In this document: positions 21,270 through 63,781 of the stretch, piece by piece
Numbering within the stretch: the stretch's first letter is position 1
How the letters are laid out: each line of letters opens with the position of its first letter
DNA from: Patescibacteria group bacterium
Lineage (GTDB): Bacteria; Patescibacteriota; JABMPQ01; JAQVVF01
DNA: 64,000 nucleotides
Assembly: GCA_041662665.1 (NCBI GenBank)
Contig: JBAZSC010000001.1
Coordinates: forward strand, 193,511 to 257,510
Direction: 5' to 3'
Notes under the pieces: generated by a model
What the model was told of the DNA's origin: nothing
Database searches by the model: none
Seen by the model: only the letters and a program-made list of their open reading frames with translations
Position numbers and translations under genes: made by a program

Positions 21270-22322
21270 ATGCAACTTCAAGAGCTTTTAGCAGAAGTTA
21301 TAAAACAAAATGCATCTGATCTCCACATCACAGTTGGCAAGCCACCGACAATCAGAGTTGATGACAAGTTAATTCCAATTGCCAATCAAGAAGTACTGAC
21401 ACCAGAAACAACAGAAAATCTAGTTTTGAGTTTGTTAACAAATGAACAAAAAGAAATTCTGATGCAAGATAAAGAGTTTGATTTTTCATACGCTTATAAT
21501 GATCAAGGCAGATTTCGTGTTAATGCCTATTTTCAAAAAAGCTATCTAGCTGCATCTTTAAGATTAATTCCTGCAAAAGTTAAAACTTTTGAAGAATTAA
21601 ATTTGCCAGAAATTTTAAAAAGTTTTGCGAGTGCTCAACAAGGTTTTTTCATTTCTTGCGGTCCTGCTGGTCATGGAAAAACAACAACAGTCGCTGCAAT
21701 GGTTGACTATATTAACAAGCAAAGGTCAGATCATATTATTACTATTGAAGATCCAATTGAATATACTTTTATTCAAGACAAATGCTTAATTGATCAGCGC
21801 GAAGTCCATCTTGATACTCATTCTTTTCCGCAAGCTTTAAAATCTTGTTTGCGTCAGGATCCAGACGTTATCTTTGTCGGTGAAATGCGAGATCTGGAAA
21901 CAATATCAACAGCTGCAACTTTGGCAGAAACAGGTCATTTAGTTTTATCAACTTTACACACTAATAACGCTGCCGATACAATTGACCGTATGGTTGGTGT
22001 TTTTCCGCCTCATCAACAAGAACAAATTCGATTTCAATTAGCTAGTTCATTATTGGGCATGATATCTCAAAGACTAATTCCAAGAATCGACAAGCCAGGC
22101 CGTATTGTTGTTGCCGAAGTTTTAAAAATCAATGCTGCAGCCAGAAACTTAATTCGCGAAGGCAAAACATATCAGTTAAACAATATAATTTTAACCAGCA
22201 AACAAGAAGGCATGATTTCTTTAGATACTTCATTAGCAGAATTGGTTAAATCAAAAATAATCAGCAAAGAAAATGCCTTAGCTTATGCAATTGATCAGAA
22301 AAATTTGAGTATGCTATTATAA
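21270..22322 (+). CDS. pilT: Type IV pilus retraction ATPase PilT
   Basis: A 350-aa GspE-family ATPase without the N-terminal GSPII domain. It has Walker A GPAGHGKTTT, Asp/His boxes and the C-terminal PilT motif. Confidence 0.8.
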   Translation: MQLQELLAEVIKQNASDLHITVGKPPTIRVDDKLIPIANQEVLTPETTENLVLSLLTNEQKEILMQDKEFDFSYAYNDQGRFRVNAYFQKSYLAASLRLIPAKVKTFEELNLPEILKSFASAQQGFFISCGPAGHGKTTTVAAMVDYINKQRSDHIITIEDPIEYTFIQDKCLIDQREVHLDTHSFPQALKSCLRQDPDVIFVGEMRDLETISTAATLAETGHLVLSTLHTNNAADTIDRMVGVFPPHQQEQIRFQLASSLLGMISQRLIPRIDKPGRIVVAEVLKINAAARNLIREGKTYQLNNIILTSKQEGMISLDTSLAELVKSKIISKENALAYAIDQKNLSMLL

Positions 22323-22400
22323 CGAGTAGTATGTAGCAGGTAGTAAGTAGAAAGTAGTAAGTCTACTTTCTACTTTCTACTTGCTACTTTCTACATTTTA
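22323..22400. repeat. Complex palindromic 'gtagaaagtag / ctactttctac' word-repeat hairpin between pilT and the pilin gene
   Basis: The stretch reads gtagtaagtagaaagtagtaagtctactttctactttctacttgctactttctac. Confidence 0.5.
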
Positions 22401-22437
22401 TAAATTAATTTATTTGAAAGGGGGTGAAAAAGAAAAA

Positions 22438-22878
22438 ATGAAAAAGTTCTTCACGTTAAAGAAAGACCACAAAGGTTTCACTTTGATTGAGTTGTTGGTT
22501 GTTATTGCTATTATTGGTATTTTGGCAGCCATCGTATTCGTTGCTTTAGGCACAGCAAGAAGAAAAGCAAGAGATGCAAGACGCGAATCAGATGTTCGCC
22601 AAGTAGCCTTGGCAATGGAGTTGTATCATGATGATAATGGCGCTTATGTAACAAACGCTGGTGCAGCAGTTCCAGCAATTGGCACATATATGCCAACAGC
22701 GCCATCAGATCCAGGTTCAGGAAGCTATGTTTGGGTAAACAATGTTGCTGATTCTCAAGATTATGTTGTTTATGGAACATTAGAAAAAACTTGTACAAAC
22801 ACTTGCTACATTGTAGCAAATCCAGATGGAGTACAAGAAGTTGATCAAGCAGCTGCACCTACATTAGCAAATCCATAA
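22438..22878 (+). CDS. pilA: Type IV major pilin (PilA-like) with a prepilin class-III signal
   Basis: [27 protein letters not shown]... carries the G/FTLIE processing and methylation motif. A strong terminator lies downstream. Confidence 0.8.
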
Positions 22879-22888
22879 TTTTCATATT

Positions 22889-22923
22889 TAAACTGGCGGA
22901 GCAAAAAATGTTCCGCCAGTTTA
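22889..22923 (+). terminator. Rho-independent terminator aaactggcgga-gcaaaaaatgt-tccgccagttt (11-bp perfect stem)
   Basis: A perfect inverted repeat sits immediately after the pilA stop. Confidence 0.7.
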
Positions 22924-23064
22924 ACATATGTTTCTAGAAAAACAAGAAAAAATATCGCTAATCATTTGCAAATTTTTGCTAATATTTTGCTAATAGTTAC
23001 TAAATAGATTGGCAAATAATTTGCATAAATTAGCAAAAGATTGGCGTCCATTTTTTAGATTTTT

Positions 23065-23493
23065 ATGAAAAACCAAAAGGGTTTTACTTTAATTGAGATA
23101 CTAGTTGTTGTTTCTATCGTCGGAATTCTTGCATCAATTGCTCTAATTGGCGTTGATGATGCCAGAAAAAAAGCACGTGATGCTCGGCGAGTTTCTGATT
23201 TGTATCAGATTTCTCAAGCCATTGAAATGTATAACAATGCAACAGGTCAGTATCCAGAAAATTTATCATCAAATCTTACCTCATATTTTCCAAGAGGATT
23301 ACCCAAGGATCCAAATCCAAGTAATAATTACGATTATATTCGTAGTCTCTCCAAATGTTATATTTTGCGTGCCAAATTAGATCGTAATAATAAAGATATC
23401 CTAAAAAGAGATTTAGATAATGAAATTACCTGCGGAGCATCAATAGATTGCAATGACGATTCTCTTTTCTATTGTGTAGGAAATAATCAATGA
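23065..23493 (+). CDS. Second type IV pilin / pseudopilin with a prepilin signal
   Basis: MKNQKGFTLIEILVVVSIVGIL... is followed by a C-terminal domain containing a Cys pair. Confidence 0.75.
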   Translation: MKNQKGFTLIEILVVVSIVGILASIALIGVDDARKKARDARRVSDLYQISQAIEMYNNATGQYPENLSSNLTSYFPRGLPKDPNPSNNYDYIRSLSKCYILRAKLDRNNKDILKRDLDNEITCGASIDCNDDSLFYCVGNNQ

Positions 23494-23524
23494 ATTATGA
23501 ATCAGGAATTATGAATAAAGAATA

Positions 23525-24343
23525 ATGAATCTTATGTTAATCCTAGCTAGCGTAATAATATTAATATTTGGTTTAGTTATCGGCAGTTTTCTTAATGTTG
23601 TCATAAACCGTCTCAATCTTCATCAAAACTTAATTTCGCCAGGCTCGCATTGTCCAAACTGCAAACACAATTTAAATTTTTGGGATTTAATTCCTGTTTT
23701 CAGTTTCATTTTTTTAAGAGGAAAATGCCGTTATTGTCAAAAAAAAATTTCTTGGCAATATCCATTAGTTGAGCTGACAACTGCAATTTCATTTTTATTA
23801 TTATTTTTCAAATTTGTTGATATTAATAATATTAATCTTGATTTTCTTGTTATTTTAGAACAGCTTTTAATCTATTTCTTTTTCACAAGCATCCTGATAA
23901 TAATTTTTGTTTACGATCTTAAGCATTATTTGATTCCGAATAAAATTATATATCCAGCATTAATTATAACTTTGATTTTGCAAATTATCCCAATATCCCA
24001 ATATCCCAATATCCCAATATCTAATTTAATAATTGGCTCATTAATTCCAGGAATATTCTTTCTGCTTTTAGTCCTTGTTTCCAAAGAAAAATGGATGGGA
24101 GCAGGCGATGTCAAATTAGGTTTTTTATGCGGTCTAATGATCGGTTATCCAAATATTTTTGTTGCTTTATTTATCTCCTTTGTTTTAGGAGCAATTATTG
24201 GTATCATTTTAATTATTTCAAAGAAAAAAGATCTCAAAGACAAAATGCCATATGGCACTTTATTAACTTTTGCAACTTTTATTTCTATTCTATTTGGCAC
24301 TCAAATTATAAATTGGTACTTTAGCTTTTTAGGCATAGTGTGA
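23525..24343 (+). CDS. pilD: Prepilin peptidase PilD (A24 family) with an N-terminal zinc-binding CxxC...CxxC
   Basis: The motifs CPNCKHNL...CRYCQKKISWQYPLVEL are present, with multiple TM helices and a conserved GAGDVKL region. Confidence 0.8.
   Translation: MNLMLILASVIILIFGLVIGSFLNVVINRLNLHQNLISPGSHCPNCKHNLNFWDLIPVFSFIFLRGKCRYCQKKISWQYPLVELTTAISFLLLFFKFVDINNINLDFLVILEQLLIYFFFTSILIIIFVYDLKHYLIPNKIIYPALIITLILQIIPISQYPNIPISNLIIGSLIPGIFFLLLVLVSKEKWMGAGDVKLGFLCGLMIGYPNIFVALFISFVLGAIIGIILIISKKKDLKDKMPYGTLLTFATFISILFGTQIINWYFSFLGIV
23986..24021 (+). repeat. 8-nt tandem repeat (tatcccaa) x4.5 inside the pilD coding sequence
   Basis: The stretch reads ttatcccaatatcccaatatcccaatatcccaatatc. The unit length is not a multiple of 3. 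Confidence 0.8.
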
Positions 24344-27013: not shown

Positions 27014-28066
27014 ATGCCTTCATCACCCGAACAATATCCGCAACTAGCCGACATCAAAGAATCAGGAGAAGTAAAAAAAGCTCCTGGTTTTGAACTTGAA
27101 AAATCAAAAGAGTTAGATCAATTTGCTGCAGAAGCAAACAAGATAGCTGAAGCAATTAAAGAAGACAAACCAGTTTTGCTTGAGCAGGTTTTAGAATTAA
27201 GAGAAGCATTAGAAAAAATGGTTGAATCAGATCCAAGAATAGAAGCAAAAAGACTATTTGGTGAAGGATATATGGGACCTGAAGAAATTGAAAAACATTT
27301 TACTTTAGAAAATGGTGAAAAACTATTTGAATATACGTCTGAAGAAAAGCAAAAAATTGTTAGAATGTTGCGTGAAAAATTAGATGATCCGCAGATTAGA
27401 GATTTAATTAAGCGAACACCAAAAGAAGAATTGCGAGAAAGATTCCAGCTTTTTCTTTTTCCTGATAAATTCAAGGATGGCACGCCTGTTACAATGAAGA
27501 GTCTTTATGAAAGATTCCAGCCAGAAATGACAAGGCGAGGCTTAGGAGAATTATTTCATGGCAAAATTGACGATAACGATTGCTGGTATTATAACAAGGA
27601 AAATAAAGAACCTTTTTTTACGTCTGATTCCAACCCATTATCTTGGAAACTATTAAGCAGAGGCAATCTTAAAGGATCTGAGAATCATGATTATTTTGAA
27701 GAAACAAAATTTTTACGAGAATACTTAAGACAAAACAATTTAGCAACTGAAGATGAACTCAACGAATGTAGCGATGAGAGATTAGTAGAATTAAGGCAAC
27801 TAAATGAGCGTGATTGGAAGAAAGCGGCAAAACAATTATCAGAAATCATGATTAATAAAAACTATCGAATTAATCCTTTAGAAGCTGTTTTTATGCATTC
27901 AATCAAGGAAAGCGTGTTGATGAGCGCTAGGACAGCCAAATGTTCTTCTTCTGGTGGATATATTTACGTCGGTTTTTATGGACATGGTATAGGTATTGGT
28001 CAATCATGGAATGGGAATGATTTAACCAGAGGGATTTCGAATTTGGGCGTTGCACTTTCCTGCTAA
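27014..28066 (+). CDS. Hypothetical E/K/R-rich cytoplasmic protein, tandem paralog A
   Basis: A 350-aa protein with no TM or signal peptide. The N-terminal ~170 aa are ~85-90% identical to the next ORF. Confidence 0.55.
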   Translation: MPSSPEQYPQLADIKESGEVKKAPGFELEKSKELDQFAAEANKIAEAIKEDKPVLLEQVLELREALEKMVESDPRIEAKRLFGEGYMGPEEIEKHFTLENGEKLFEYTSEEKQKIVRMLREKLDDPQIRDLIKRTPKEELRERFQLFLFPDKFKDGTPVTMKSLYERFQPEMTRRGLGELFHGKIDDNDCWYYNKENKEPFFTSDSNPLSWKLLSRGNLKGSENHDYFEETKFLREYLRQNNLATEDELNECSDERLVELRQLNERDWKKAAKQLSEIMINKNYRINPLEAVFMHSIKESVLMSARTAKCSSSGGYIYVGFYGHGIGIGQSWNGNDLTRGISNLGVALSC

Positions 28067-28187: not shown

Positions 28188-29249
28188 ATGCCATCATCAC
28201 CAGAACAACAACCACAACTAACAGATATCAAAGAATCAGAAGAAGTAAAAAAAGCTCCTGGTTTTGAACTTGAAAAATCAAAAGAGTTAGATCAATTTGC
28301 TGCAGAAGCAAACAAGATAGCTGAAGCAATTGAAGAAGACAAACCAGTTTTGCTTGGTCAGGTTTTAGAATTAAGAGAAGCATTAGAAAAAATGATAGAA
28401 TCAGATCCAAGAATAGAAGCAAAGAGATTATTTGGCGAAAGCTATATGGGTCCAGATGAAATAGAAGCATATTTTACAGTTCAAGAAGAGAATGGAAGAG
28501 TTGAAAAGCTATTTGAATACACTCCAGAAGAAAGAAAAAGAATTAATCAAATGCTACGAGAAAAGTTAGATGATCCGCAAATCAAAGATTTAATCGCTAG
28601 AACTCCAAGAGAAGAATTGCGAGAAAGATTTCAGCTTTTTCTTTTTCCAGATAAATTCAAAGATGGAACACCTGTTACAATGAAAAGCTTAAACGATAAA
28701 TTTAGCGCCGAAATGGAAAAACGAGGTCGAGGATCTTTGATGTATAAACATCCAAGAGAAAAGGAATGGTATTATAATGACGATCGTAGAGAAAATTTCT
28801 TTACAACAAATTCAAATTTATTATCTTGGAAGCTACTAAGTAGGAGCACTCTTAAAGGATCTATGGGCCATGATTGTTTTGAAGAAACAAAATTTTTAAG
28901 AGAATATTTAAGACAAAACAATTTGGCAGGTGAAGACGAACTAGCTGAGTGCAGTGATGAGAGATTGACAGAATTAAAACAATTGAATGGACAAGATTGG
29001 AAAGAAGCATCAAGGCAATTATCAGAACTTAAAATAAATAAAAACTATAGAATAAATCCATTAGAAGCTATTTTCATGCACGCAATTAAACAAAGCGAAA
29101 TATATGGCAGAGCTGCTAGAACAGCCTGGCGTTCTTCTTATGGTGGAATGCTTAGCGTCGGCGAATATGGACAAGGTATGGCTATCGGCGCTGATTATGA
29201 TAATTTAGATAAAGAAATTTCCAATGTTGGTATTGTACTCTCTCTCTAG
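28188..29249 (+). CDS. Hypothetical E/K/R-rich cytoplasmic protein, tandem paralog B
   Basis: A 353-aa paralog of 27014..28066. The C-terminal half is ~60% identical. Confidence 0.55.
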   Translation: MPSSPEQQPQLTDIKESEEVKKAPGFELEKSKELDQFAAEANKIAEAIEEDKPVLLGQVLELREALEKMIESDPRIEAKRLFGESYMGPDEIEAYFTVQEENGRVEKLFEYTPEERKRINQMLREKLDDPQIKDLIARTPREELRERFQLFLFPDKFKDGTPVTMKSLNDKFSAEMEKRGRGSLMYKHPREKEWYYNDDRRENFFTTNSNLLSWKLLSRSTLKGSMGHDCFEETKFLREYLRQNNLAGEDELAECSDERLTELKQLNGQDWKEASRQLSELKINKNYRINPLEAIFMHAIKQSEIYGRAARTAWRSSYGGMLSVGEYGQGMAIGADYDNLDKEISNVGIVLSL

Positions 29250-37313: not shown

Positions 37314-37769
37314 ATGTTAAAAGACCGAATCAATAAAGATTTAATTACTGCATTAAAAGCAAAAGATCAGGAAAAATCTTCAATTTTAAGATTAATTAAT
37401 TCTGAAATCAAAAACGAAGAAATCGCCAAGAAAAAAAGAGAGCAAGGCTTAAATGACGAAGAAACTCAAGCTGTAATTGCTCGCCAAATCAAACAAATCA
37501 ATGATTCTATTGAATCTTTTAAGGCTGGAAAAAGAGAAGATCTAGTCAAGGAAGAAGAACAAAAATTAGCAATCTTAAAAGTCTATTTGCCAAAACAAAT
37601 AGAAAAAGCAGAAGTTGAAAAAATCGTTGATGAAGTCATTGCTCAAGTAAAGCCATCGAGTCCATCAGATTTTGGCAAGGTTATGGGGCAAGTTATGGCA
37701 AAAGTCAAAGGCAAAACTGATGGAAAAGTTGTGAATGAACTTGTTAGAAAAAAATTGAATGAGAATTAA
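37314..37769 (+). CDS. yqeY: GatB/YqeY-domain protein
   Basis: A 151-aa protein with MLKDRINKDLITALKAKDQEKSSILRLINSEIKN, typical of YqeY. Confidence 0.75.
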   Translation: MLKDRINKDLITALKAKDQEKSSILRLINSEIKNEEIAKKKREQGLNDEETQAVIARQIKQINDSIESFKAGKREDLVKEEEQKLAILKVYLPKQIEKAEVEKIVDEVIAQVKPSSPSDFGKVMGQVMAKVKGKTDGKVVNELVRKKLNEN

Positions 37770-37800
37770 GAATTATGAATCAAGAATTATGATTTGAATA

Positions 37801-38181
37801 ATGAATAAAACAAAAATAAAATCTTTTACAGATTTAAATGCTTGGAAAGAAGCGCATGTCTTAGTTATAATGATTTATAAAATTACTAAAACATTTCCCA
37901 AAGATGAATTGTTTGGATTAATTAATCAGCTTAGAAGATGCGCTGTTTCTATAACCTCAAACATTGCAGAGGGATTTAGCAGACCAACTTACAAAGAAAA
38001 AATAAAATTTTATTATACTTCTTTAGGTTCTGTAACTGAACTTCAAAATCAAATTTTAGTTGCGAGAGATATTGAATATTTATCAAACAAAGATTTTCAA
38101 AAAATTGCCAATCAAAGCATAACTGTCCATAAACTTATAAATGGATTGATTAAAAAATCAAAAACATTTAAAAAATCATGA
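37801..38181 (+). CDS. Four-helix-bundle protein (23S rRNA intervening-sequence protein family), copy 1
   Basis: AWKEAHVLVIMIYKITKTFPKDELFGLINQLRRCAVSITSNIAEGFSR is present. The gene is flanked by inverted 'aattatgaat' word repeats at 37770-37800 and 38176-38235. Confidence 0.75.
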   Translation: MNKTKIKSFTDLNAWKEAHVLVIMIYKITKTFPKDELFGLINQLRRCAVSITSNIAEGFSRPTYKEKIKFYYTSLGSVTELQNQILVARDIEYLSNKDFQKIANQSITVHKLINGLIKKSKTFKKS

Positions 38182-38217
38182 TTCATAATTCTAAATTCAA
38201 ATCATAATTCTTAATTC

Positions 38218-38775
38218 ATGATTCATAATTCTCGTAAAAAAAGTGTAGTCAATATCCCAAATGCCTTATCTCTTTTTCGATCTATTGTAATTTTTGTTGT
38301 CTTTTTTGCCCTTTTTGCTGATATTAATTTTCTGCTTCTTCAGATTTTAGTTGTTTTAGCAATTGTTAGTGACAAAATTGATGGCAGCTGGGCAAGACAT
38401 TTCAAAGAAACATCGAGATTTGGCATGCTCTTTGATTCATATGCTGATGCTGGATTTATTGCTATTTGTCTTATTTATGCAATCTTAAAATTAGATTTTC
38501 CAATTTACATTTTGTATTTTGGTTTGCCATTTGTTTTTATAATTTTACTTTTCTATTTAATATTTTCAATATTTGGCAAAAAAATTATTTCTTTTTGGGA
38601 TTTTGGCAAAAGGTTAGAATCAAAATCTACAGCCGTTGTATTATTCACTCTAATTATTTTTTATTTTTTCGATCTTCCGCTTAAAGTATATGTTGCTTGG
38701 TTCATGTTCGTTTATATTTATCTTTATTTATTTTATTATTTATATATAGCTATAAAACATGCAAAGAAAAAGTGA
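38218..38775 (+). CDS. CDP-alcohol phosphatidyltransferase family protein, paralog 1
   Basis: D-x2-DG-x2-AR...G...D-x3-D pattern (DKIDGSWARHF...FDSYADAG). Multi-TM. Confidence 0.7.
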   Translation: MIHNSRKKSVVNIPNALSLFRSIVIFVVFFALFADINFLLLQILVVLAIVSDKIDGSWARHFKETSRFGMLFDSYADAGFIAICLIYAILKLDFPIYILYFGLPFVFIILLFYLIFSIFGKKIISFWDFGKRLESKSTAVVLFTLIIFYFFDLPLKVYVAWFMFVYIYLYLFYYLYIAIKHAKKK

Positions 38776-43683: not shown

Positions 43684-44412
43684 TTAAATACTAATAATCC
43701 GTTAATCATTGCACACAGAGGAGCTTCTTCGTATGCTTTTGAAAATACCTTAGATTCATTCAGGAAAGCATGTACTTTTGGCGCGGATATGATTGAACTA
43801 GATATCAGAGTTACAAAAGACAATGAATTAATTGTCTTTCATGATTCAGCAATTGATCGCATGACCGATGGTTCTGGTTTAGTCCAATATTTTACTCTTG
43901 CTGATTTAAAAAAAATTAAAATTCATGGAGAAGCAATTCCAACTTTGGAAGAGGTTATAAAAGTAACTTTAGGAAAAACAAATTATAACTTTGAAGTAAA
44001 AAATATTCCTTTAGCAAGCATCGATAAATTAATCGCGCTTTTGGATAAATATAATCTTCGCTATAAAGTAATAATTTCTTCATTTAATAGAAAAATTATT
44101 TTAAGAATAATAGAAATTGACCGCCAAATAAAAATTGCTTTATTGTGTTGGCAACTCAGAAAAAATAATCTCAAATTTATCCAGAAAAATGATCTGAATT
44201 ATGTGCATCCATATTATGGATTTTTAACTAGAAAAAAAATCAAGCAAGTCCATAATTTAGGCATTAAAATTAATACCTGGACTGTCAATTGGTCACTAGA
44301 TTTGAAATGGGTAATGGAATTAGGTGTTGATGGCGTGATTACGAATCGACCTGATTTAGCAAAAGCAGTCTTAGGCAAAATGAACAGACAAAAAACAACG
44401 CTCCATAGTTAA
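43684..44412 (+). CDS. Glycerophosphodiester phosphodiesterase (GDPD family), inserted inside the por operon
   Basis: IIAHRGASSYAFENTLDSF...ELDIRVTKDNELIVFHD is present. The ORF is open from 43645. Confidence 0.8.
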   Translation, partial: LNTNNPLIIAHRGASSYAFENTLDSFRKACTFGADMIELDIRVTKDNELIVFHDSAIDRMTDGSGLVQYFTLADLKKIKIHGEAIPTLEEVIKVTLGKTNYNFEVKNIPLASIDKLIALLDKYNLRYKVIISSFNRKIILRIIEIDRQIKIALLCWQLRKNNLKFIQKNDLNYVHPYYGFLTRKKIKQVHNLGIKINTWTVNWSLDLKWVMELGVDGVITNRPDLAKAVLGKMNRQKTTLHS

Positions 44413-44445
44413 AAAGTTCCTAAAGTTATAAAGTTTATAAAGTAA

Positions 44446-44790
44446 ATGAAAATTAAAAAATTTGAAGAAATTATTTCTTGGCAGAAAGCCGGAACTTTAA
44501 GTCTAAATATATATAAACTTTTTAAGCATTCAAGAGATTTCAGTTTTAGAGATCAGATTCAAAGAGCCTCGATATCAATGATGAATAATATTGCTGAAGG
44601 ATTTGAAAGAAAAACTAATAAAGAATTTAAAAATTTTCTTTATATCGCTAAAGGCTCTTGCGCTGAAGTCAGATCAATGTTATATATTGCTTTCAAACTA
44701 GAATACATAAATCAAAAACAGTTTAATGAAAATTATAAATTATGTTTAGAAATATCAAAAACAATTTCAGGTCTAATCAAGACTTTATGA
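44446..44790 (+). CDS. Four-helix-bundle protein (23S rRNA IVS family), copy 2, inside the por operon
   Basis: ISMMNNIAEGFERKTNKEFKNFLYIAKGSCAEVRSMLYIA is present. It is flanked by inverted 'agttataaagttt' repeats. Confidence 0.75.
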   Translation: MKIKKFEEIISWQKAGTLSLNIYKLFKHSRDFSFRDQIQRASISMMNNIAEGFERKTNKEFKNFLYIAKGSCAEVRSMLYIAFKLEYINQKQFNENYKLCLEISKTISGLIKTL

Positions 44791-44820
44791 ACTTTATAAC
44801 TTTAAAAACTTTATAACTAT

Positions 44821-45771: not shown

Positions 45772-45856
45772 CACTCCAACACTTTTTTAAAAACACTAAA
45801 ACATTAAATTTTTGTGTGTTCAAGTGTTCGAGTGTTTAAGTGTTCATCTCAACGTC

Positions 45857-46267
45857 ATGACAAAATTCCAAGAAAAACTGAAATTAAAAATGGATGAGTA
45901 TGTGCATTTCGTTTATCTTGTAACAAAAAAGTTTCCAAGAGATGAATTATATGGAGTTACATCACAAATTCGTCGAGCTAGCCTTTCTGTAATACTCAAC
46001 TATCTCGAAGGCTATGCTAGAAGAAGACCGGCTGTTCAGTTGAATTTTTTTGAAACCTCATATGGTTCATTGAAAGAATCAAAATATTTGTTGCATTTTT
46101 CGATGAAAGAAAAATATTTATCAATAGAGGATTATAAGCATGCTATCAAATTAGCAGAAGAAATTGGTGCAATGCTTTGGTCTGAAATAAAATCATTAGA
46201 CAATAAGACGCAAAAACACCCTAAAACTTTAACAAAGAAACACTCGAATACTAAAACACTCAAATAG
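45857..46267 (+). CDS. Four-helix-bundle protein (23S rRNA IVS family), copy 3
   Basis: YGVTSQIRRASLSVILNYLEGYARRR is present. It is flanked by the exact 17-bp direct repeat cgagtgtttaagtgttc at 45839-45855 and 46291-46307. The ORF is open from 45812. Confidence 0.7.
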   Translation: MTKFQEKLKLKMDEYVHFVYLVTKKFPRDELYGVTSQIRRASLSVILNYLEGYARRRPAVQLNFFETSYGSLKESKYLLHFSMKEKYLSIEDYKHAIKLAEEIGAMLWSEIKSLDNKTQKHPKTLTKKHSNTKTLK

Positions 46268-54948: not shown

Positions 54949-56634
54949 ATGCAACCAGAAAAATTAAAAGAACTGCTTGTAGATAGTAAACTTATTAAGG
55001 AGGATGATTTCAATAACGCTTTAAAAGAAGCGCAACAAAGCAACCAATCTCTTGAAAATATGCTTGTTGAAAAAAATTTAATTTCCGATGAAAATCTTGG
55101 CCAGCTTATTGCAAATGACCTAGGTTTTAAATTTGTTAATTTAAAACGTGAAGGTATAGACCAAAATATTTTTTCTATAATTCCTCAAATTGTTGCCAAA
55201 AATCAGAATGCAATTGCATTTGGAAAAGATAACAATGGTATTAAGATTGCCATGAATGATCCAAAGAATTTAGATTTTATTAGCCTGATGGAGAAAAAAA
55301 CTGGTGAAAAAGTAATACCTTATTATGCATCCAAAAGAGATATTTCAATGGCTTTAGATCTATACAATAAAGGTTTGGAACAGAAATATGAAGAATTAAT
55401 AAAAAAAGATATTGCTCAAATAAAAAAACCAGAAGCTGAAGAAGTGCCAATTGTAAAATTAATTGATACCTTGATTGAATATGCTTATCAAAATCGGGCT
55501 TCAGATATTCACATTGAGCCTTTGAAAGAAAGTATCATTGTTAGATTTAGAATTGATGGAGTCTTGCATAAAGTTTTAGAATTGCCTAAAAATCTTTTAG
55601 AAGCTTTGATTTCTCGTCTAAAAATATTGGCTAAGCTTCGAACTGATGATCATTTTTCTGCACAAGACGGAAAAATCGTTCAAAAGATTAATGGCAATGA
55701 TATTGATATTAGAATTTCTATTATTCCAATCACTAATGGTGAAAACGCTGTTTTGAGAATTCTATCAGAACGCGCTCGACAATACACATTAGAAAATTTA
55801 GGTTTGCAGGGAAATGATTTAGATAAAATCCAAAATGCCATCAAAAAACCTTGGGGCATGATTCTGGCAACTGGTCCAACAGGTTGTGGAAAAACGACAA
55901 CTCTTTATTCAATCTTAAAAATTTTGAATACCACAAAAGTCAATATCGCCACAATTGAAGATCCAGTTGAATATGATATTGAAGGCGTTAATCAAATTCA
56001 AGTAAATCCGCGTACTAATCTGACTTTTGCCAAAGGTCTCAAATCAATAGTCCGCCAAGATCCAGATATTATTATGGTTGGAGAAATTAGAGATGAAGAG
56101 ACAGCCGGTATTGCTATCAATTCTGCCATGACTGGCCATTTAGTTTTATCAACTTTGCATACTAATGATGCAGCTACAACCTTGCCTAGATTGATTGATA
56201 TGAAAGTTGAGCCTTTCTTAGTTTCTTCAACAATCAACATCATAATTGCTCAACGTTTAGTTCGCAAAATTTGTGAAAAATGTCGTGCAAGTGAAATAAT
56301 TCCTCAAGAAAAAATTGATATTCTTAAAAAACAGTTAGATCCAAGAATTCAGCAACTTATTGACAAATACGTTGTTGATCATGAATTAACAGTTTACAAA
56401 AGCAAAGGTTGCACTGCTTGTCAAAATACTGGCTATTCTGGTCGTATTGGAATTTTCGAAGTTATGGAAATCAAAGAAAATATCAAAGAGCTAATCATGA
56501 AAAAAGCCAATGCTCAAGAAATCGAAGATCAAGCAATCAAAAATGGCATGACTACAATGGTTGAAGATGGTTTAAAAAAAGTTTCCTCTGGAGTTACTAC
56601 GCTAGATGAAGTCTTGAGAGTTACAAAAGAATAA
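54949..56634 (+). CDS. pilB: Type IV pilus assembly ATPase PilB (GspE family, with an N-terminal GSPII domain)
   Basis: Walker A GPTGCGKTTT, Asp/His boxes and a tetracysteine motif (CEKC...CTAC) are present. Length is 561 aa. Confidence 0.85.
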   Translation: MQPEKLKELLVDSKLIKEDDFNNALKEAQQSNQSLENMLVEKNLISDENLGQLIANDLGFKFVNLKREGIDQNIFSIIPQIVAKNQNAIAFGKDNNGIKIAMNDPKNLDFISLMEKKTGEKVIPYYASKRDISMALDLYNKGLEQKYEELIKKDIAQIKKPEAEEVPIVKLIDTLIEYAYQNRASDIHIEPLKESIIVRFRIDGVLHKVLELPKNLLEALISRLKILAKLRTDDHFSAQDGKIVQKINGNDIDIRISIIPITNGENAVLRILSERARQYTLENLGLQGNDLDKIQNAIKKPWGMILATGPTGCGKTTTLYSILKILNTTKVNIATIEDPVEYDIEGVNQIQVNPRTNLTFAKGLKSIVRQDPDIIMVGEIRDEETAGIAINSAMTGHLVLSTLHTNDAATTLPRLIDMKVEPFLVSSTINIIIAQRLVRKICEKCRASEIIPQEKIDILKKQLDPRIQQLIDKYVVDHELTVYKSKGCTACQNTGYSGRIGIFEVMEIKENIKELIMKKANAQEIEDQAIKNGMTTMVEDGLKKVSSGVTTLDEVLRVTKE

Positions 56635-56667
56635 AAAGTCGCTTTGACTTTTTTACTAAATATAGAT

Positions 56668-57057
56668 ATGTTAAAAAAAATTTTAATTGCCGAAGATGAA
56701 TCAACAATGCAAAATGTTTTAAAAAGCAAAGTTGAAGAATTAGGGTACGAAGTTATCCAAGCATATGACGGAGAAGAAACTTTGGAAAAAGTAAAAACAG
56801 AAAAGCCAGATTTAATATTGTTAGATATTATCATGCCAAAAAAATCAGGTTTTGATGTTTTAAAAGAATTAAAAATAAAACAAAGATCAGAAATTCCAGT
56901 CATTATTTTAACTAATCTCGGACAAGAAAGCGATATTAAAACTGGCAAAGAATTAGGTGCGCTTGACTACATTTTGAAAGCTAATGTTTCTTTGCAAGAT
57001 TTAATGTCAAAAATTAGCAATTATTTAGAAAAAAACAAAAATGGCAAGAAAATTTAA
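56668..57057 (+). CDS. Single-domain response regulator embedded between pilB and pilC
   Basis: KILIAEDE...LDIIMPKKSGFDV...K receiver motifs are present. The ORF is open from 56644. Confidence 0.7.
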   Translation: MLKKILIAEDESTMQNVLKSKVEELGYEVIQAYDGEETLEKVKTEKPDLILLDIIMPKKSGFDVLKELKIKQRSEIPVIILTNLGQESDIKTGKELGALDYILKANVSLQDLMSKISNYLEKNKNGKKI

Positions 57058-58117
57058 CATTTCAATCGGCAGAATAACAATAACTGATAAAGCTCTGTTT
57101 ACAAAGCATATGGCAGTCATGCTTAAAGCTGGGCTTACAATTAACGATGCTTTAGACGTTGCTTTTGAAGAATCAACTGGTCGATTCTCAAATATTTTAA
57201 GAGACGTAAAAGAAAAAGTTTTGGCAGGCTCAACTCTGGCTGATGCATTATCAAAGTATGAAAAAGTCTTCTCAAATCTTTACGTTAATATAATTAGAGT
57301 TGGCGAAAAAAGCGGTACTTTGGTTGAAAGTTTAGAGCAATTAGCAATTCAGCTAGAAAAAGAAAATGAGCTTCGCAGCAAAATTTCTCAAGCCATGCTC
57401 TATCCAATTATTGTTTTAGCTGCTGTAATTTTAGTTGGTGGCGGTATTTCAATTTTTGTTTTGCCAAAATTAACGAGCCTTTTTCAAGTTTTTCAAGGTC
57501 AATTGCCATTGTCTACCCAAATCTTACTTTATATTGTGAATATCTTAGTAAAATACGGCATTTATATTTTTCCTGGATTAATAGTTTTAACATTTTTTTT
57601 AATCTGGCTTACTCGCACAAAATTAATTAAGCCAATTTGGCATGCTATTTTATTAAAAATGCCTATTGTCAGCCCAATTGTAAAAAATTTAAGCCTCGCT
57701 CAATTCAATCGAAATTTTGGCACATTATTAAAAAGCGGTTTGCCAGCAACAGAAAGTTTGGAGATTGTCGCTGACAGTATGCAAAATGAAGTTTATAGAA
57801 GAAAAATAAAATACATTTCCAAAGAAATACAAAGCGGCAAAAATATTTCTGATGTCATTTCCAAAATGGACAAAATATTTCCTAAGGTCACTTCAAAAAT
57901 GATTAATGTCGGCGAAAAATCTGGAACTTTAGATACAGTCTTAATTTTTCTTGCCAAATTTTATGAATCCGAAGTCGACAAAGCCTCAAAAAATTTGTCA
58001 GTAACTTTAGAGCCAGTATTGTTAGTCATAATTGGTTTTGTTGTCGGTTTTGTTGTTATGGCAATCATCACTCCAATTTACTCGTTAACAAGTACAATCG
58101 GCAGTCAAACTCCGTAA
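57041..58117 (+). CDS. pilC: Type IV pilus platform protein PilC (GspF family)
   Basis: Two T2SSF repeats, each with a GEKSGTL motif, and three TM segments. Confidence 0.8.
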   Translation: MARKFNISIGRITITDKALFTKHMAVMLKAGLTINDALDVAFEESTGRFSNILRDVKEKVLAGSTLADALSKYEKVFSNLYVNIIRVGEKSGTLVESLEQLAIQLEKENELRSKISQAMLYPIIVLAAVILVGGGISIFVLPKLTSLFQVFQGQLPLSTQILLYIVNILVKYGIYIFPGLIVLTFFLIWLTRTKLIKPIWHAILLKMPIVSPIVKNLSLAQFNRNFGTLLKSGLPATESLEIVADSMQNEVYRRKIKYISKEIQSGKNISDVISKMDKIFPKVTSKMINVGEKSGTLDTVLIFLAKFYESEVDKASKNLSVTLEPVLLVIIGFVVGFVVMAIITPIYSLTSTIGSQTP

Positions 58118-58206
58118 CTACGGATAATTCGGATTACATGCGGATATTAACGGATTTATTTTCGTTCCGCGTGCAATCCGTATAATTCGCACGTATTTAA
58201 AAAAAT

Positions 58207-58653
58207 ATGAGAGGATTTACATTGATTGAATTAATTTTGGTCATTGCTATTTCCGCGACATTAGCAGCCTTGGCAGTTCCAACTATTGGTCAGTTTTCAA
58301 ATCGTACCCAAATCGATGCTACTGAAACAGAAATTATCAGTGCTTTAAGACTTGCTCAAGCAAAAGCAATGGCAGTTGAACAAGACTCCAAATTTGGAGT
58401 TTATTTTGATAATGTTAATCAAAAATTTTATATTTTTAGAGGACTAAATTTTGGCGATAATCCATCAGAAAATATTGAATATAATTATCCAAATGTAATC
58501 AATGTTGCTCAAAGTTTTACAGGCAACCAAGCTGATTTTGAAAAACTTTTCGGCACAACCACTGACACAGGAAATATCGTTATTACAAATAATATTGGGC
58601 AAACCAGAACCATTAATGTTAGTTCTGTTGGCAAAATTGAATACGCGGAATAA
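58207..58653 (+). CDS. Pseudopilin/minor pilin (GspH-like) with a prepilin signal
   Basis: MRGFTLIELILVIAISATLAALAVP is present. Confidence 0.75.
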   Translation: MRGFTLIELILVIAISATLAALAVPTIGQFSNRTQIDATETEIISALRLAQAKAMAVEQDSKFGVYFDNVNQKFYIFRGLNFGDNPSENIEYNYPNVINVAQSFTGNQADFEKLFGTTTDTGNIVITNNIGQTRTINVSSVGKIEYAE

Positions 58654-58697
58654 ACGGATTACACGCGGACACTTTTATTTTTTATTAAATTTATTTA

Positions 58698-59150
58698 ATG
58701 GTTATAATAACAAAATCAGGCCAACCATTATTATATGAAAAAGAATCTTATGTATTAAGAGGAATATGGATGGATATTTATAATTCTTTGGGTCCAGGAC
58801 ATAAAGAAATTGTTTATGGAAATGCATTTGAACATACATTAAGAAATAATAAAATTCCATTTATTAGAGAACCAATTATTTCATTGATTTATGACGGAAA
58901 AAAGGTTGGTACTTATCGTCCTGATTTTATAACTTTTAACGAAATTATCGTTGAGTTTAAGTCTTTGAATATAATTCCCCAAGTTTTTTATAAAAAGATC
59001 TATCAGTATTTAAAAAGTTCTCAATATAAATTAGCTTTTATCGTTAATTTTGGAACAACCGAATTACAAATTATCAGACGTATTTATGACATCAAACGTC
59101 AAAAAAAATCAGTGGCATCCGCGTGCAATCCGTACAAATTCGTATTGTAA
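58698..59150 (+). CDS. GxxExxY protein (PD-(D/E)XK-like fold family), inserted inside the pilus operon
   Basis: GHKEIVY (GxxExxY), RPDFIT and EFK motifs are present, with a C-terminal YLK...AFIVNFG. Confidence 0.7.
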   Translation: MVIITKSGQPLLYEKESYVLRGIWMDIYNSLGPGHKEIVYGNAFEHTLRNNKIPFIREPIISLIYDGKKVGTYRPDFITFNEIIVEFKSLNIIPQVFYKKIYQYLKSSQYKLAFIVNFGTTELQIIRRIYDIKRQKKSVASACNPYKFVL

Positions 59151-62016
59151 AGGCCAAAGTCTAGTTGAAATTGTCATTGCTTTAGGAATTTTCGTTATAA
59201 TCACAAGTGGCATAATAACGCTGTCTTTAGGTTCTCTAATTTCCGAACGCCAAGGCGGAGAAATTACTCAAGCCACTTTTTTTATGCAACAAGGCGCTGA
59301 AGCAACGAGATCAATTCAAGATTTAGCATACAATAAATTAGCATATTATTCAGATGGCTTAACTCATGGCCTTGATAATTCTTCAGGCGTCTGGGAGTGG
59401 TCAGGATTAAATAACATTAAAGATCAATTTACCAGAACGATAAAAATAGAAGACGTAACGCGTGATACCTCTGGCAATATTGGAGCAGGAATAAATGACT
59501 TAGAAACAAAAAAAATAACCGTTTCATCAGATTGGGCATTTGCTTTAGGCCGTGCCAATCAGGTTCAATCAATTTTTTATCTTACAAATTGGAATCGAGG
59601 ATTATGGGTTGAAGATACAGTTGCTGATTTTAGCGATGGCATTTTTAATGATACTTATGTATCCAATGATTTTGGCGGAGAAATAAAACTTGCAAAAAAT
59701 TCAAATACAACTTGGCAATGCGGTACTCAATCAGGAACTTTAAATCTTCCTTCCGTCGTCAATGCTACAGATGTTGTTACAGTTGGCAATATTTCTTACG
59801 TTACGACTCTTAATAATACAAGTGGTGCGGAATTTTATATTATAGATGTTTTCAATCCAGCTAGTCTTTCAATACTAGGATCATTGAATATTGGCACTGC
59901 TGCAAATGGAGTTTTTGTTAGTGGCAATTACGCCTATGTCGCTACCAACAGCGATTCTCAAGAACTAATGGTTATTGACATTACTAATCCTGGCAGTTTA
60001 TCAATTAATGGATCATATGATGCTGATTTCGCCAGCAATGCCAATAATGTTTTTGTTGATTCAGGCTATGCTTATCTTGTTACTAACATTAATAATTCTG
60101 GCGGACCAAACCCAGAATTCTATGTATTAGATGTTTCTACTCCAACCTCGCCTAGCTTGGAAGGTTCTTTAGATATCGGCGCAAATATTTTTTCTGCTTT
60201 TTATGATAATAATAAAGTTTATGTAAGTTCTTCTAATAATAGTGCTGAAATGAACATTGTCGATGTCTCAACAAAAAATAATCCTAACATTATTGGTTCG
60301 TACGATGCTCCATCGAGCTTTGATGGAACTGACACTTTTGCTTCTGGCAACACCGCTTATTTAACAACTAACGATAATGGCATTGGAGATGAATTTTATG
60401 TTCTAAATGTTACTAATCCTGGAAGCATAACAGTTATTGGCTCTTATAATGTTAACGGCAATGCCCTTTCTGTTTTTGTTGATCCAGGTGCTACAACAGC
60501 ATTTATTGGAAACTCTCAGAGCCTTCAGCAATTTAAAGTAATAGACATCACAACTCCATCATCACCGACTTTGCTCAAATCTTTTAATGCTAATGGTAAT
60601 GTTCGCAGTGTTTATTTTGCTAACAATAAAGTCTATTTAACTTCAGACAGCGGTACTCAAGAATTTCAAATTTTTCAACCAAACACTGGTAATTCCTGGG
60701 ATTGTATCAAGCAAACTGGTATTTATGATAGTACTGGCCTGCAAGATGCAACTGACGTTAATGTGGTTGCAGTTAGCAACCGAGCCTATATTACTACAGT
60801 TAATAATGCTGCAGGAAATGAATTCTATATTCTTGATATTTCAACACCGTCAACGCCAACTCTGCTTGGTTCTCTTGACTTGAACGCTGATGCTAACGCT
60901 CTGTATATCAATGGCAATTACGCCTATATTGCTACGTCTAGCGATAATCAGGAATTAATGGTTGTAAACATTACGAATCCAGGATCTTTGTCTATCAATG
61001 GTTCATATGATGCCGACTCCAATGTTGATGCCACTGATGTTTTTGTCTCTGGAAATTATGCTTACTTAACTACTAAAGTAAACTCAACTGTTGGCATTAA
61101 TCCAGAATTCTATATTCTTGATATTACAACTCCTACCAACCCCGCGCTAACTGGATATTTGGAGCCTGATACCAATGTAAATTCTGTTTTTTATTCCAAC
61201 GATAAAGCATATCTTGCCACAATTAAAGACATTCAAGAATTAATTATTGTTGATGTAACAAACAAAGCTATTCCTGCAGTTGCTGGAATCTATGATGCGC
61301 CAACTGGGATTGATGCTTCAGCTGTCTGGGTTAATGGCAATACTGCCTATTTTGTTAGAAAAAATATGATCGGTAGCAATCCAGAATTTCAAGTTCTTGA
61401 TGTTACAAATCCTGCTTCAGTTTTTGAAATTGGCAGCTTAGACCTTCAAGCAGCCGGTCTATGCATATATGTTGACAACAATCATGCCTTTGTAGGCACC
61501 TCTGCCACAGATCAAGAAGCGCAAATTATTGATATCTCTAATCCCGCAAGTCCATCTCGCATTAATTCCATTGATGCCAATGGCGATGTTAATGGAATAT
61601 CCTCTGCCGTCAACGCTATTTATCTTGCGACCGCAAATAATTCTGAAGAATTTCAAATCTGGAGTCAAGTTGCAACATACCAGACATTTGGCACTTATGA
61701 ATCATCAGAGTTCGGTCCAGTTTCTAATTTTAATTTAATAAAATGGACTGAAAATATTCCTTCAGTTAATGAAGATTTGCTAGTTCAAATCAAGACCGCT
61801 CCTGATAATGCTGGCGTTCCAGGAGTTTGGTATTCAAATTGGTGTGGACCGTTAGGCAAGATCGGCAATGATACCAACTTTTTTACTGATTCAAATGGCC
61901 AGATAATTAATCCAAATATGATTGGAGATAATTGGATAAAATATAAATTGACTTTAACCGGTAATGGTACTGATACTCCAGCCTTGCGAAGCCATACAGT
62001 TAATTATAAACCATAA
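59086..62016 (+). CDS. Modular type IV pilin: prepilin-like N-terminus (…KGQSLVEIVIALGIFVI) fused to a ~900-aa LVIVD-repeat beta-propeller-like domain
   Basis: A class-III signal-like KG|QSLVE is followed by a hydrophobic helix. There are at least 12 repeats of the pattern G.YAY(V/L)(A/T)T..........(L/F).V(I/V)D(I/V)(T/S)NP..., for example QELMVIDITNPGSLSINGSYDA. The ORF is open from 59050, and its 5' end overlaps the GxxExxY gene. Confidence 0.6.
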   Translation: MTSNVKKNQWHPRAIRTNSYCKGQSLVEIVIALGIFVIITSGIITLSLGSLISERQGGEITQATFFMQQGAEATRSIQDLAYNKLAYYSDGLTHGLDNSSGVWEWSGLNNIKDQFTRTIKIEDVTRDTSGNIGAGINDLETKKITVSSDWAFALGRANQVQSIFYLTNWNRGLWVEDTVADFSDGIFNDTYVSNDFGGEIKLAKNSNTTWQCGTQSGTLNLPSVVNATDVVTVGNISYVTTLNNTSGAEFYIIDVFNPASLSILGSLNIGTAANGVFVSGNYAYVATNSDSQELMVIDITNPGSLSINGSYDADFASNANNVFVDSGYAYLVTNINNSGGPNPEFYVLDVSTPTSPSLEGSLDIGANIFSAFYDNNKVYVSSSNNSAEMNIVDVSTKNNPNIIGSYDAPSSFDGTDTFASGNTAYLTTNDNGIGDEFYVLNVTNPGSITVIGSYNVNGNALSVFVDPGATTAFIGNSQSLQQFKVIDITTPSSPTLLKSFNANGNVRSVYFANNKVYLTSDSGTQEFQIFQPNTGNSWDCIKQTGIYDSTGLQDATDVNVVAVSNRAYITTVNNAAGNEFYILDISTPSTPTLLGSLDLNADANALYINGNYAYIATSSDNQELMVVNITNPGSLSINGSYDADSNVDATDVFVSGNYAYLTTKVNSTVGINPEFYILDITTPTNPALTGYLEPDTNVNSVFYSNDKAYLATIKDIQELIIVDVTNKAIPAVAGIYDAPTGIDASAVWVNGNTAYFVRKNMIGSNPEFQVLDVTNPASVFEIGSLDLQAAGLCIYVDNNHAFVGTSATDQEAQIIDISNPASPSRINSIDANGDVNGISSAVNAIYLATANNSEEFQIWSQVATYQTFGTYESSEFGPVSNFNLIKWTENIPSVNEDLLVQIKTAPDNAGVPGVWYSNWCGPLGKIGNDTNFFTDSNGQIINPNMIGDNWIKYKLTLTGNGTDTPALRSHTVNYKP

Positions 62017-62057: not shown

Positions 62058-62573
62058 ATGAAACAAAAAGGCTTTACATTGATAGAGCTGATGCTCTCAA
62101 TAGCAATCATTTCCATTTTTATAACTGGCTTGGCTTATTTTAGTATTGATATTTTTAAATCAAAAGCTAAGGCTTCATCTGTTGCCGAAGTTCAAGAAAA
62201 TGTTCGTTTTGCTATGCAAAAAATGTCATTATATATTTTAAATTCACAAGAAGGAATTAATAATGCAGATTCGCAATTTTACCCAACCAATCCAGGAAGA
62301 TTGCATGTTAATATGGGACCAGGAGCAGGGGACGATGTAATTTTTACAGTTAGCTCTAATCAAATCCAAATAACAATTGGCGCTGCATCTGCCGTACCAA
62401 TTACAACTAATGAAGTAAAAATAAATACTTTAACTTTCAAGAATAATTCTAGTAATAATACTCCTGGAAATTACACCATCAATATCACAGGCCAATACAA
62501 TAATTTAGGAACAAAAAAAGAATTTGATTATACTTATGATACGGAAACATCAGTGACTTTAAGGAGACCTTAA
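62058..62573 (+). CDS. Minor pilin with a prepilin signal
   Basis: [26 protein letters not shown] is present. Confidence 0.75.
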   Translation: MKQKGFTLIELMLSIAIISIFITGLAYFSIDIFKSKAKASSVAEVQENVRFAMQKMSLYILNSQEGINNADSQFYPTNPGRLHVNMGPGAGDDVIFTVSSNQIQITIGAASAVPITTNEVKINTLTFKNNSSNNTPGNYTINITGQYNNLGTKKEFDYTYDTETSVTLRRP

Positions 62574-62674: not shown

Positions 62675-63067
62675 ATGTCAGAAAAAGGACAAATAGCTCT
62701 CATCGCAGTCTTAATTATTTCTGCCGCAGTTTTAATCGTATCGTTGGCGATCAGTTCAATTGGCGTTAATGAAACTTTAATGAGCTTTGATGATCAGCAA
62801 GGCGAGCAGTCTTTTTTGATTGCCGATTCTTGTGTTAATGAAGCATTGATGCGTTTGAAAAGAGTTAAAGCAGGAGAAGAAGCAGCTTATGTTGGAGGTA
62901 CTTTGAATTTTGGTACAGATTCATGTATAATTACAGTAACTCCTCAAGTCAACAATCAAATTATTGATGTTACTTCAACTGTTAATTCAAAAATAAATCG
63001 AAAAATCCAAGTCGTTTTGCAATGGAATCCAACTTATGCTTTAACTTCTTGGCAAGAAATACAATAA
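62675..63067 (+). CDS. PilX-like pilus assembly protein (PilX N-terminal-type hydrophobic segment)
   Basis: MSEKGQIALIAVLIISAAVLIVSLAISS is followed by a small globular domain. Confidence 0.55.
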   Translation: MSEKGQIALIAVLIISAAVLIVSLAISSIGVNETLMSFDDQQGEQSFLIADSCVNEALMRLKRVKAGEEAAYVGGTLNFGTDSCIITVTPQVNNQIIDVTSTVNSKINRKIQVVLQWNPTYALTSWQEIQ

Positions 63068-63071
63068 AAAT

Positions 63072-63248
63072 ATGATACAACAAAAAACAACAGCTCAAGA
63101 TATACAGGACAATATTTTTAAAAAAATGACTGCTGATCAAAAAATTAAATTAGGCAGTCAATTATGGAGGCTAGCAAAAGATTTAGTTGGTAATAAAATT
63201 GATTATGGAACAAACAGATCCAAGACAACTTTTAATAAACATCGTTAA
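63072..63248 (+). CDS. 58-aa small ORF (MIQQKTTAQDIQDNIFKKMTADQKIKLGSQLWRLAKDLVGNKIDYGTNRSKTTFNKHR) overlapping the start of the nucleotidyltransferase gene; possibly a cognate partner
   Basis: It is not in the ORF track because it is under 60 aa. It overlaps the downstream ORF by ~44 nt in another frame. Confidence 0.25.
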   Translation: MIQQKTTAQDIQDNIFKKMTADQKIKLGSQLWRLAKDLVGNKIDYGTNRSKTTFNKHR

Positions 63249-63768
63249 AATTCTTGAAAAATTAAAAATTCCTTATTTTGTAACTGGTGGCATGGCTGTT
63301 TTAATTTGGGGAAGACCGCGATTTACCGCTGATATTGATCTCATTATTGTTTTAAAGGCAGATGACATCAACAAACTTGAAAAAGCTTTATTAGCATTTA
63401 GTAAAGCTGGTTATGTTGATAAAGAAGCCATCAAAGATGCTTTTTTTAGGCACGGAGAATTTAACTTTATTGACGGAGAAACAGGCGTAAAAGTTGATTT
63501 TTGGATTTCCAAAAATGATCAATTTGATTCATCTAGATTAAAAAGAAAAATTACTAAAAATATCTTAAACAAAAATATATATTTTTCTTCGCCAGAAGAT
63601 CTGATTCTAATAAAACTTTTATGGTACAAAGAATCACCACTAAGTCGTCAGCTAGAAGATGTTGAATCTGTATTCAAGATTTCTGGTGATAAACTTGATA
63701 AAAAATATTTAAAGCAATGGGCAAGTAAATTAGGAGTCTCAGAAATATTAAAAAAAATTAAATATTAA
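63205..63768 (+). CDS. Nucleotidyltransferase-fold protein (AbiEii/ANT(2'')-like minimal NTase)
   Basis: VTGGMAVLIWGRPRFTADIDLII carries the GG...D-x-D signature of pol-beta-type NTases. The ORF is open from 63187. Confidence 0.5.
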   Translation: MEQTDPRQLLINIVKILEKLKIPYFVTGGMAVLIWGRPRFTADIDLIIVLKADDINKLEKALLAFSKAGYVDKEAIKDAFFRHGEFNFIDGETGVKVDFWISKNDQFDSSRLKRKITKNILNKNIYFSSPEDLILIKLLWYKESPLSRQLEDVESVFKISGDKLDKKYLKQWASKLGVSEILKKIKY

Positions 63769-63781
63769 TTACAAATCTTTC

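Follow-up and report, generated by a model that had tools for sequence, protein, structure and literature searches.

Within a 64,000-nucleotide stretch of a Patescibacteria contig (JBAZSC010000001.1; the window, to which all coordinates refer), a gene on the plus strand at 59086..62016 encodes a 976-residue protein that we read as a modular minor pilin of the type IV pilus, in which two propellers built from LVIVD repeats would sit at the pilus tip as a binding head. We put the probability of this joint reading at roughly 0.6. The open reading frame (ORF) runs from an ATG at 59086, the start called by both NCBI and JGI, to a stop at 62016, as the original prediction had it, and the product is identical in sequence to P0001, a hypothetical protein deposited from a Patescibacteria metagenome-assembled genome. 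From its amino-terminus the protein is laid out as a pilin module of ~185 residues, two propeller units of 328 residues each and a 112-residue domain that does not contain LVIVD repeats. The original prediction had described one propeller of ~900 residues grafted onto a prepilin N-terminus, and in this respect it has to be amended, as there are instead two units inserted between conserved parts of the protein. Otherwise its observation is confirmed and its reading is largely right, if only partly supported; nothing that it had named as grounds for rejection (no N_methyl or pilin-helix prediction, a true start downstream of the KGQSLVE segment, or repeats not folding as a propeller) was found.

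The N-terminus carries the class III signal of a prepilin, which is defined by a short basic leader ending in Gly or Ala, a Glu at position +5 and about 20 hydrophobic residues. The motif reads KG/QSLVEIVIALGIFVIITSGIITLSL, where the slash marks the predicted cleavage site, so that both the KG/QSLVE sequence and the hydrophobic α1-N helix of the original prediction are present. Conservation among homologues begins at Gly-1, the leaders being free in both length (2-26 residues) and sequence, and Glu +5 is invariant in all 16 full-length homologues. In a wider set, the 120 best homologues, 64 fit the pattern of Gly, Ala or Ser before the cleavage site, xxxxE after it and a hydrophobic stretch, although one of these matches is a false positive. 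In about a dozen others the gene call is truncated at the N-terminus and starts within the α1 helix. Comparison with the closely related locus L001, a contig of GCA_964574655.1, gave a ratio of nonsynonymous to synonymous substitution rates (dN/dS) of 0.11 over the pilin module and 0.07 over the hydrophobic helix α1N, with dS ~1, which indicates strong purifying selection on the helix codons. A start located after KGQSLVE was also considered and rejected, as the frame has no ATG, GTG or TTG until Met69 and the selection just described acts on the helix codons.

The mature pilin module (residues 1 to ~149 after cleavage, 59155..59601) is predicted to have the pilin fold, a long N-terminal helix containing Glu5 packed on an antiparallel β-sheet. 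In the full-length AlphaFold2 (AF2) model, which has a mean predicted local distance difference test (pLDDT) score of 77, residues 22-79 form the helix and are followed by four strands. Modelling the N-terminal 178 residues with an alignment of 42 sequences gave a helix of 60 residues together with an antiparallel sheet, at a pLDDT of 88.5 and a predicted template modelling score of 0.72. A Foldseek search with the pilin module returned no significant match, and the GspI and GspK models showed no sequence-level match to the protein. A profile of the module compared with PDB sequences matched pilins weakly (E 0.007-0.6) and over α1N only; its top match, LigA, looks spurious. The module also exists on its own, as a homologue of 156 residues whose annotation is that of a type II secretion system protein; it came from a word-indexed search with the N-terminal module, which returned two proteins, missed known close relatives and is uninformative on family size. 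Our conclusion is that the protein begins with a genuine minor-pilin module, of the GspI/GspK structural type, and that its prepilin motif is real but atypical.

The repeat region was matched by Pfam LVIVD (PF08309, IPR013211) at 134 bits against a gathering score of 20.2 (E 1e-39), and by Beta_propel (PF09826) at 61.6 against 22.4 bits (E 9e-17). The dozen or more repeats originally described are borne out by a motif scan, which located 13 LVIVD-type cores; seven lie in residues 209-536, at 249, 293, 344, 388, 436, 482 and 526, and six in residues 537-864, where a fourteenth core, EFQIWSQ, can be read by eye. The two units, each of 328 residues and 47% identical to one another, correspond to a first seven-bladed propeller at 59731..60693 and a second at 60694..61677. 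AF2 models the region as all-β with pLDDT mostly 85-95, and the best Foldseek matches in the PDB are tandem-propeller proteins such as AIP1, UTP proteins, DDB1 and BT4663. The repeats are therefore two seven-bladed propellers, and the expectation that they fold in this way held. The cut-off of the choice-of-anchor B model (TIGR04312) was not reached (73.6 against 100 bits). The propeller cassette finds its best match in the database at just 40-46% identity. Propellers within one protein are more alike (47-50%) than those of orthologues (40-43%), and family members fall into length classes near 620, 945, 1265 and 1650 residues; these two features suggest that propeller copy number changes often. 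Among the better propeller matches are non-pilin LVIVD proteins of ~1400 residues from Bdellovibrio and Micavibrio, both predatory bacteria (26-31% identity over 49-62% of the query).

On either side of the propellers lie conserved parts of the protein. Upstream is a segment at 59602..59730 with the consensus W-x-E-D-T-x-A-D-F-S-D-G followed by G-G-E-I-K-L, which we call the hairpin, a label of our own; D181, F182, G185, G198 and L202 within it are invariant among 16 homologues. Downstream is the 112-residue C-terminal domain (61678..62013), predicted to be all-β at low confidence, which matched no Pfam family and has no sequence relative in the PDB. When 1.84 billion cluster representatives were scanned in full with HMMER, 438 contained this domain at E<=1e-3, and in nearly all of these it lies at the extreme C-terminus. 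Among the best 150 proteins about half have a prepilin N-terminus, with lengths ranging from ~300 to 1800 residues. Nineteen of the 150 are only 297-365 residues long, mostly 310-330, and in these 'empty' forms the hairpin consensus is followed a few residues later by Y-x-T-x-G-T-Y-E-S-S-E-F. Twelve of them were aligned with the window protein after deletion of its residues 216-860, and they match what is left over its whole length. The variable module is thus an insertion at a fixed site, between the conserved hairpin and the C-terminal domain, and not a terminal graft. Members of the family carry LVIVD, Laminin_G_3, DUF4082, H_lectin, PSII_BNR, Cadherin-like or other modules, and many carry no recognisable domain.

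Near relatives have a different module in the same carrier. L001 and the window are collinear, their DNA being 80-84% identical over pilB, pilC, the 148-residue pilin, both ends of the modular pilin, the 171- and 130-residue proteins and pilM. Within the modular pilin gene the similarity ends at 59691 and returns at 61689, the two flanks being 82.7% and 81.5% identical; between them the window has 1997 nucleotides encoding the propellers and L001 has 1061 nucleotides encoding an unrelated DUF4082/Lectin_like module. Comparison with the proteins P0009 and P0010 gave the same result, as the N-terminal flank is 88-92% identical and the C-terminal domain 81-87% identical while the middles are unrelated. 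In a single-protein scan, the carrier was found at >85% identity in only two GTDB species representatives, both with a lectin-type cassette. Judged by these comparisons, the putative binding head is a replaceable cassette on a constant pilin carrier. We looked in the composition of the cassette for a sign of recent foreign origin, but GC content at third codon positions (0.247 against 0.20-0.27 in neighbouring genes) gave no signal; the higher GC of the cassette results from its amino-acid composition. It is possible, though we hold this only tentatively, that the protein represents a widespread Patescibacteria minor pilin acting as a socket, with a GspI/K-like module followed by a conserved domain that has a single fixed insertion site, where between-strain recombination would swap whole heads, among them lectins, DUF4082 and LVIVD propellers in one to about four copies, and that the window strain recently switched from a lectin-type head to the double propeller. 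If so, such exchange would switch the surface or host recognised by the pilus, akin to the swapping of receptor-binding modules in phages.

The gene lies in a type IV pilus locus, as the original prediction had proposed from its pilB-pilC-pseudopilin context. In order, the genes encode a response regulator, a PilB-type assembly ATPase (54949..56634, plus strand like the GxxExxY gene and the other pilus genes of the window given here; T2SSE 2e-131, MshEN), a second response regulator, a PilC-type platform protein (57041..58117; T2SSF 3e-62), a 148-residue minor pilin, a GxxExxY protein and the modular pilin, followed by a 171-residue minor pilin, a 130-residue pilin-like protein and an AbiEii-like nucleotidyltransferase. 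The 148-residue pilin (58207..58653, MRG/FTLIE) matched TIGR02532 at 27.1 bits against a threshold of 16.3 and GspH at E 1e-9, below the cut-off of that model, and the 171-residue pilin (62058..62573, MKQKG/FTLIE) matched N_methyl (E 2.6e-9) and TIGR02532. The 130-residue protein (62675..63067) begins MSEKG/QIALI, is without Glu5 and had no Pfam or NCBIfam match; we regard it as a candidate capping subunit. The absence of Glu5 marks the topmost subunit of the tip complex, both in type II secretion and in type IV pili, as in GspK of GspHIJK and in the core minor pilin complexes. Glu5 is missing from the last gene in all three lineages compared, the window, L001 (10487-10891) and L006 (7610-7993), with G/QIALI and G/LTALV motifs. 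The order pilB, pilC, ~150-residue pilin, modular pilin, ~175-residue pilin, ~130-residue Glu5-less protein and pilM is kept in L001, L003 and L006, and in L006 the synteny holds at just ~40% identity. Together with the class III-type N-terminus and the predicted α1 helix and sheet, this syntenic cluster favours the modular-pilin reading. Two genes are additional to those of L001, the response regulator in the gap between pilB and pilC (56644-57057), which is also found in L003, and the AbiEii-like gene (63070-63781), between the last minor pilin and pilM.

A second group of pilus genes is found ~35 kb upstream (21270-24343). This encodes a PilT-like ATPase of 350 residues (21270..22322; T2SSE 1.4e-46), two short canonical pilins whose translations contain KG/FTLIE (22438-22878 and 23065-23493) and which are candidates for the major pilin, and the prepilin peptidase PilD (23525..24343; A24_N_bact 3.8e-37, Peptidase_A24 1.1e-17), the expected protease for the G/Q site.

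The best reading of these data is that the modular pilin is a core minor pilin that would prime assembly and end at the tip with its propellers exposed, a position suggested by the conserved four-pilin cluster, the Glu5-less protein and the GspI/K-like fold. Under this model the hydrophobic α1 helix would insert the prepilin in the membrane, where PilD would cleave after Gly23. The GspI/GspK-like module would then join the GspH-like 148-residue pilin, the 171-residue pilin and the Glu5-less protein in a complex that primes assembly on PilB/PilC and ends at the tip, and the two LVIVD propellers would project there as the head that binds a ligand on a surface or host cell. It is thought that Patescibacteria lack an outer membrane and a secretin that would restrict a bulky tip. 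Synteny with pilB, pilC and the other minor pilins is what points to incorporation into the filament. A role in binding is suggested by the interchange of the cassette with lectin-type modules and by the parallel with PilB of Streptococcus sanguinis (PMC8179133) and PilX2 of TM7x, and on this analysis the two propellers most likely serve as a binding head carried at the tip.

The tip adhesin PilY1/PilC of type IVa pili raises the question of whether the propellers might regulate the pilus, controlling priming or the extension and retraction of the filament, perhaps by binding ions, instead of acting as a ligand-binding adhesin. PilY1 too pairs a propeller with a minor-pilin complex at the tip (PMC8179133, PMC11623550), and most members of the present family have an acidic stretch, G-x-D-G-D-E-T-D-Y-F, in the C-terminal domain, which one might speculate binds calcium. 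In the window protein, however, this stretch is degenerate (GKIGNDTNFF). PilY1 also differs in not being a pilin and in having its own propeller family, and no PilY1-type C-terminal propeller domain (IPR008707) was among the Pfam matches of the window protein at E<=0.1. As the lectin-type cassettes of close relatives are better explained by interchangeable binding heads than by a regulatory core, we consider a PilY1-like regulator improbable.

Several observations weigh against a modular minor pilin with a binding head at the tip. Although LVIVD was matched well above its gathering score, the N_methyl family (PF07963), which the original prediction had also expected, was matched below its curated cut-off (17.7 against 21.2 bits, E 0.0027), and TIGR02532 gave no match to the protein at E<=0.01. 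Gln at +1 is unusual among bacterial pilins, where Phe or Met is found, and this probably accounts for the low N_methyl score; the thresholds of both models are an aid to detection and not a biological criterion, and 25 of 63 family members matched N_methyl at E<=0.001. Within the full-length AF2 model, the pilin and C-terminal parts are of low confidence. Regarding the head, no informative sequence relative of solved structure was found for the propeller in the PDB, and we know of no ligand or function for any LVIVD propeller. The unusual N-terminus could also mean that the protein never polymerises and uses its class III signal for export and for anchoring in the membrane or cell wall. Class III signals occur in archaeal proteins other than pilus subunits, ordinary surface proteins commonly contain LVIVD propellers, and the same C-terminal domain is found in many Sec-type, non-pilin surface proteins of up to 5802 residues. 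Such an anchored surface protein would, however, not explain why Glu5 is invariant, why the pilin module most resembles tip pseudopilins in its fold, or why the gene keeps its position among three minor pilins beside pilB and pilC at ~40% identity, and for these reasons we consider it unlikely.

The remaining difficulties concern the start of the gene. The GxxExxY gene described immediately upstream of the long ORF is indeed present (58698..59150; PD-(D/E)XK type, TIGR04256 at 95.9 bits against a cut-off of 35, PDDEXK_3 3e-26) and is bracketed by an inverted repeat, with its left arm at 58654..58686 and its right arm at 59101..59133, within the leader-coding region of the pilin. The cassette is missing at the orthologous site in the relatives L001, L003 and L007. 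Relatives of the modular pilin start with ATG-TAT-AGC-AAA-GGT (MYSKG/) or ATG-AAA-CAA-AAA-GGT (MKQKG/), giving a leader of five residues, whereas the window has TCG-TAT-TGT-AAA-GGC and therefore no ATG at this position. The only in-frame starts are ATG 59086, 65 nucleotides inside the GxxExxY gene, and TTG 59050, also within it, and translation of the leader must pass through the stem arm. The native ATG is lost, and the 23-residue basic leader MTSNVKKNQWHPRAIRTNSYCKG (59086..59154) is encoded by the inserted element, its codons sharing nucleotides with both the right arm of the palindrome and the 3' end of the GxxExxY gene. The comparison indicates that a stem-loop cassette carrying the GxxExxY gene overwrote the native start, and expression of the modular pilin may have been reduced or lost.

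Taken further, these features could indicate a gene in decay, whose ORF is no longer productively expressed since the cassette removed its start codon; the low dN/dS is compatible with a very recent loss. Against this, the 2.9-kb frame is intact, an in-frame ATG is available and was called as the start by both annotation centres, and leaders of 20-26 residues occur in other family members. A comparable leader is found in P0002 (L006 3874-3945), a 39%-identical double-propeller orthologue. On this basis the gene may still function with its replaced leader, and we regard decay as quite improbable. The 22-residue leader of P0002 compares with MRG/ in its sisters P0003 and P0005, and its codons hold short repeats of the GTTACYG type, making it a second replaced leader in the family.

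Proteins of this kind have been catalogued before. Using an InterPro search for N_methyl proteins with additional domains, Raynaud et al. 2021 (PNAS, PMC8179133) listed IPR012902 together with one to 13 copies of IPR013211, the LVIVD repeat, in 30 proteins (Dataset S1), singled out a protein of 860 residues from Falkowbacteria as the most extreme of the modular pilins, reported domain strings only, calling the motif one 'of unknown function', and argued that modular pilins are adhesins exposed at the tip. The claim that this architecture is not a standard annotated one is not supported, as the combination of N_methyl and LVIVD is catalogued though uncharacterised and is not novel as a kind. 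The window protein shares with those modular pilins a prepilin N-terminus and a small pilin module bearing a bulky extra module. Theirs, however, is grafted at the C-terminus through a short linker, whereas that of the window protein is enclosed by the hairpin and the C-terminal domain, and as the N-terminus of the window protein is under the N_methyl threshold, a search by domain strings could miss it. To our knowledge the fixed insertion site with its C-terminal domain, the replacement of the cassette in near relatives and the takeover of the start by a stem-loop cassette are new with respect to that study.

A functional parallel is a minor pilin of another Patescibacteria lineage, PilX2 of Nanosynbacter lyticus TM7x (Saccharibacteria), which has a seven-bladed RCC1 β-propeller, a non-canonical signal peptide and is the largest pilin of its locus, and whose deletion lowered host binding from ~10.6% to 4.6% (Grossman et al. 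2024, PMC11623550). Both proteins combine a lollipop-shaped pilin part with a seven-bladed propeller, but by its description PilX2 has one RCC1 propeller, against a pair built from LVIVD repeats in the window protein, for which the Pfam scan gave no RCC1 match. PilX1 of TM7x and PilC/PilB of S. sanguinis are minor pilins whose modules are of the jelly-roll/lectin or vWA kind. The nearest relatives of the window protein, P0009 and P0010, have a DUF4082/Lectin_like cassette of the same general type, although the module families differ from those of the window protein and its relatives. The tip pseudopilins GspI and GspK (EpsI, XcpV, XcpX) have extra domains unrelated to those described here.

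Those Patescibacteria that have been cultivated grow attached to other microbes, and the attachment device with the best support is the type IV pilus (PMC11623550, PMC11665869). The locus offers a well-defined candidate for the host-recognition head of the pilus in an ultrasmall bacterium, and a comparison of near relatives in which the head is replaceable and the carrier constant makes hypotheses about host specificity testable. LVIVD propellers would also gain a defined biological setting. As the kind of protein is already known the advance is incremental, and the locus is best seen as a good example and not a new kind of thing.

The inserted element at the start of the gene is one of several in the window. 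Four small ORFs among ordinary genes each lie inside their own long inverted repeat (37761-38233, 44405-44820, 45811-46264 and 58654-59133), with arms of 33-46 nucleotides that are 73-90% complementary. The first three are 23S_rRNA_IVP genes (37801-38181, 44446-44790 and 45812-46267) and the fourth is the GxxExxY gene; these bracketed ORFs look like mobile stem-loop cassettes. An IVP gene is also found between pilB and pilC in L006. The palindrome core TCCGCGTGCAATCCGT has six matches against 0.06 expected. Copies without an ORF occur at 58121..58190, between pilC and the first minor pilin (-28.9 kcal/mol, z -4.8), where L001 has none, and at 10600-10660, which forms a hairpin of -36 kcal/mol (z -7.0). 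Beyond the second pilus gene group lie two adjacent paralogous proteins of 350 residues (27014-28066 and 28188-29249), which matched no Pfam family and whose N-terminal halves contain MPSSPEQ(Y/Q)PQL.

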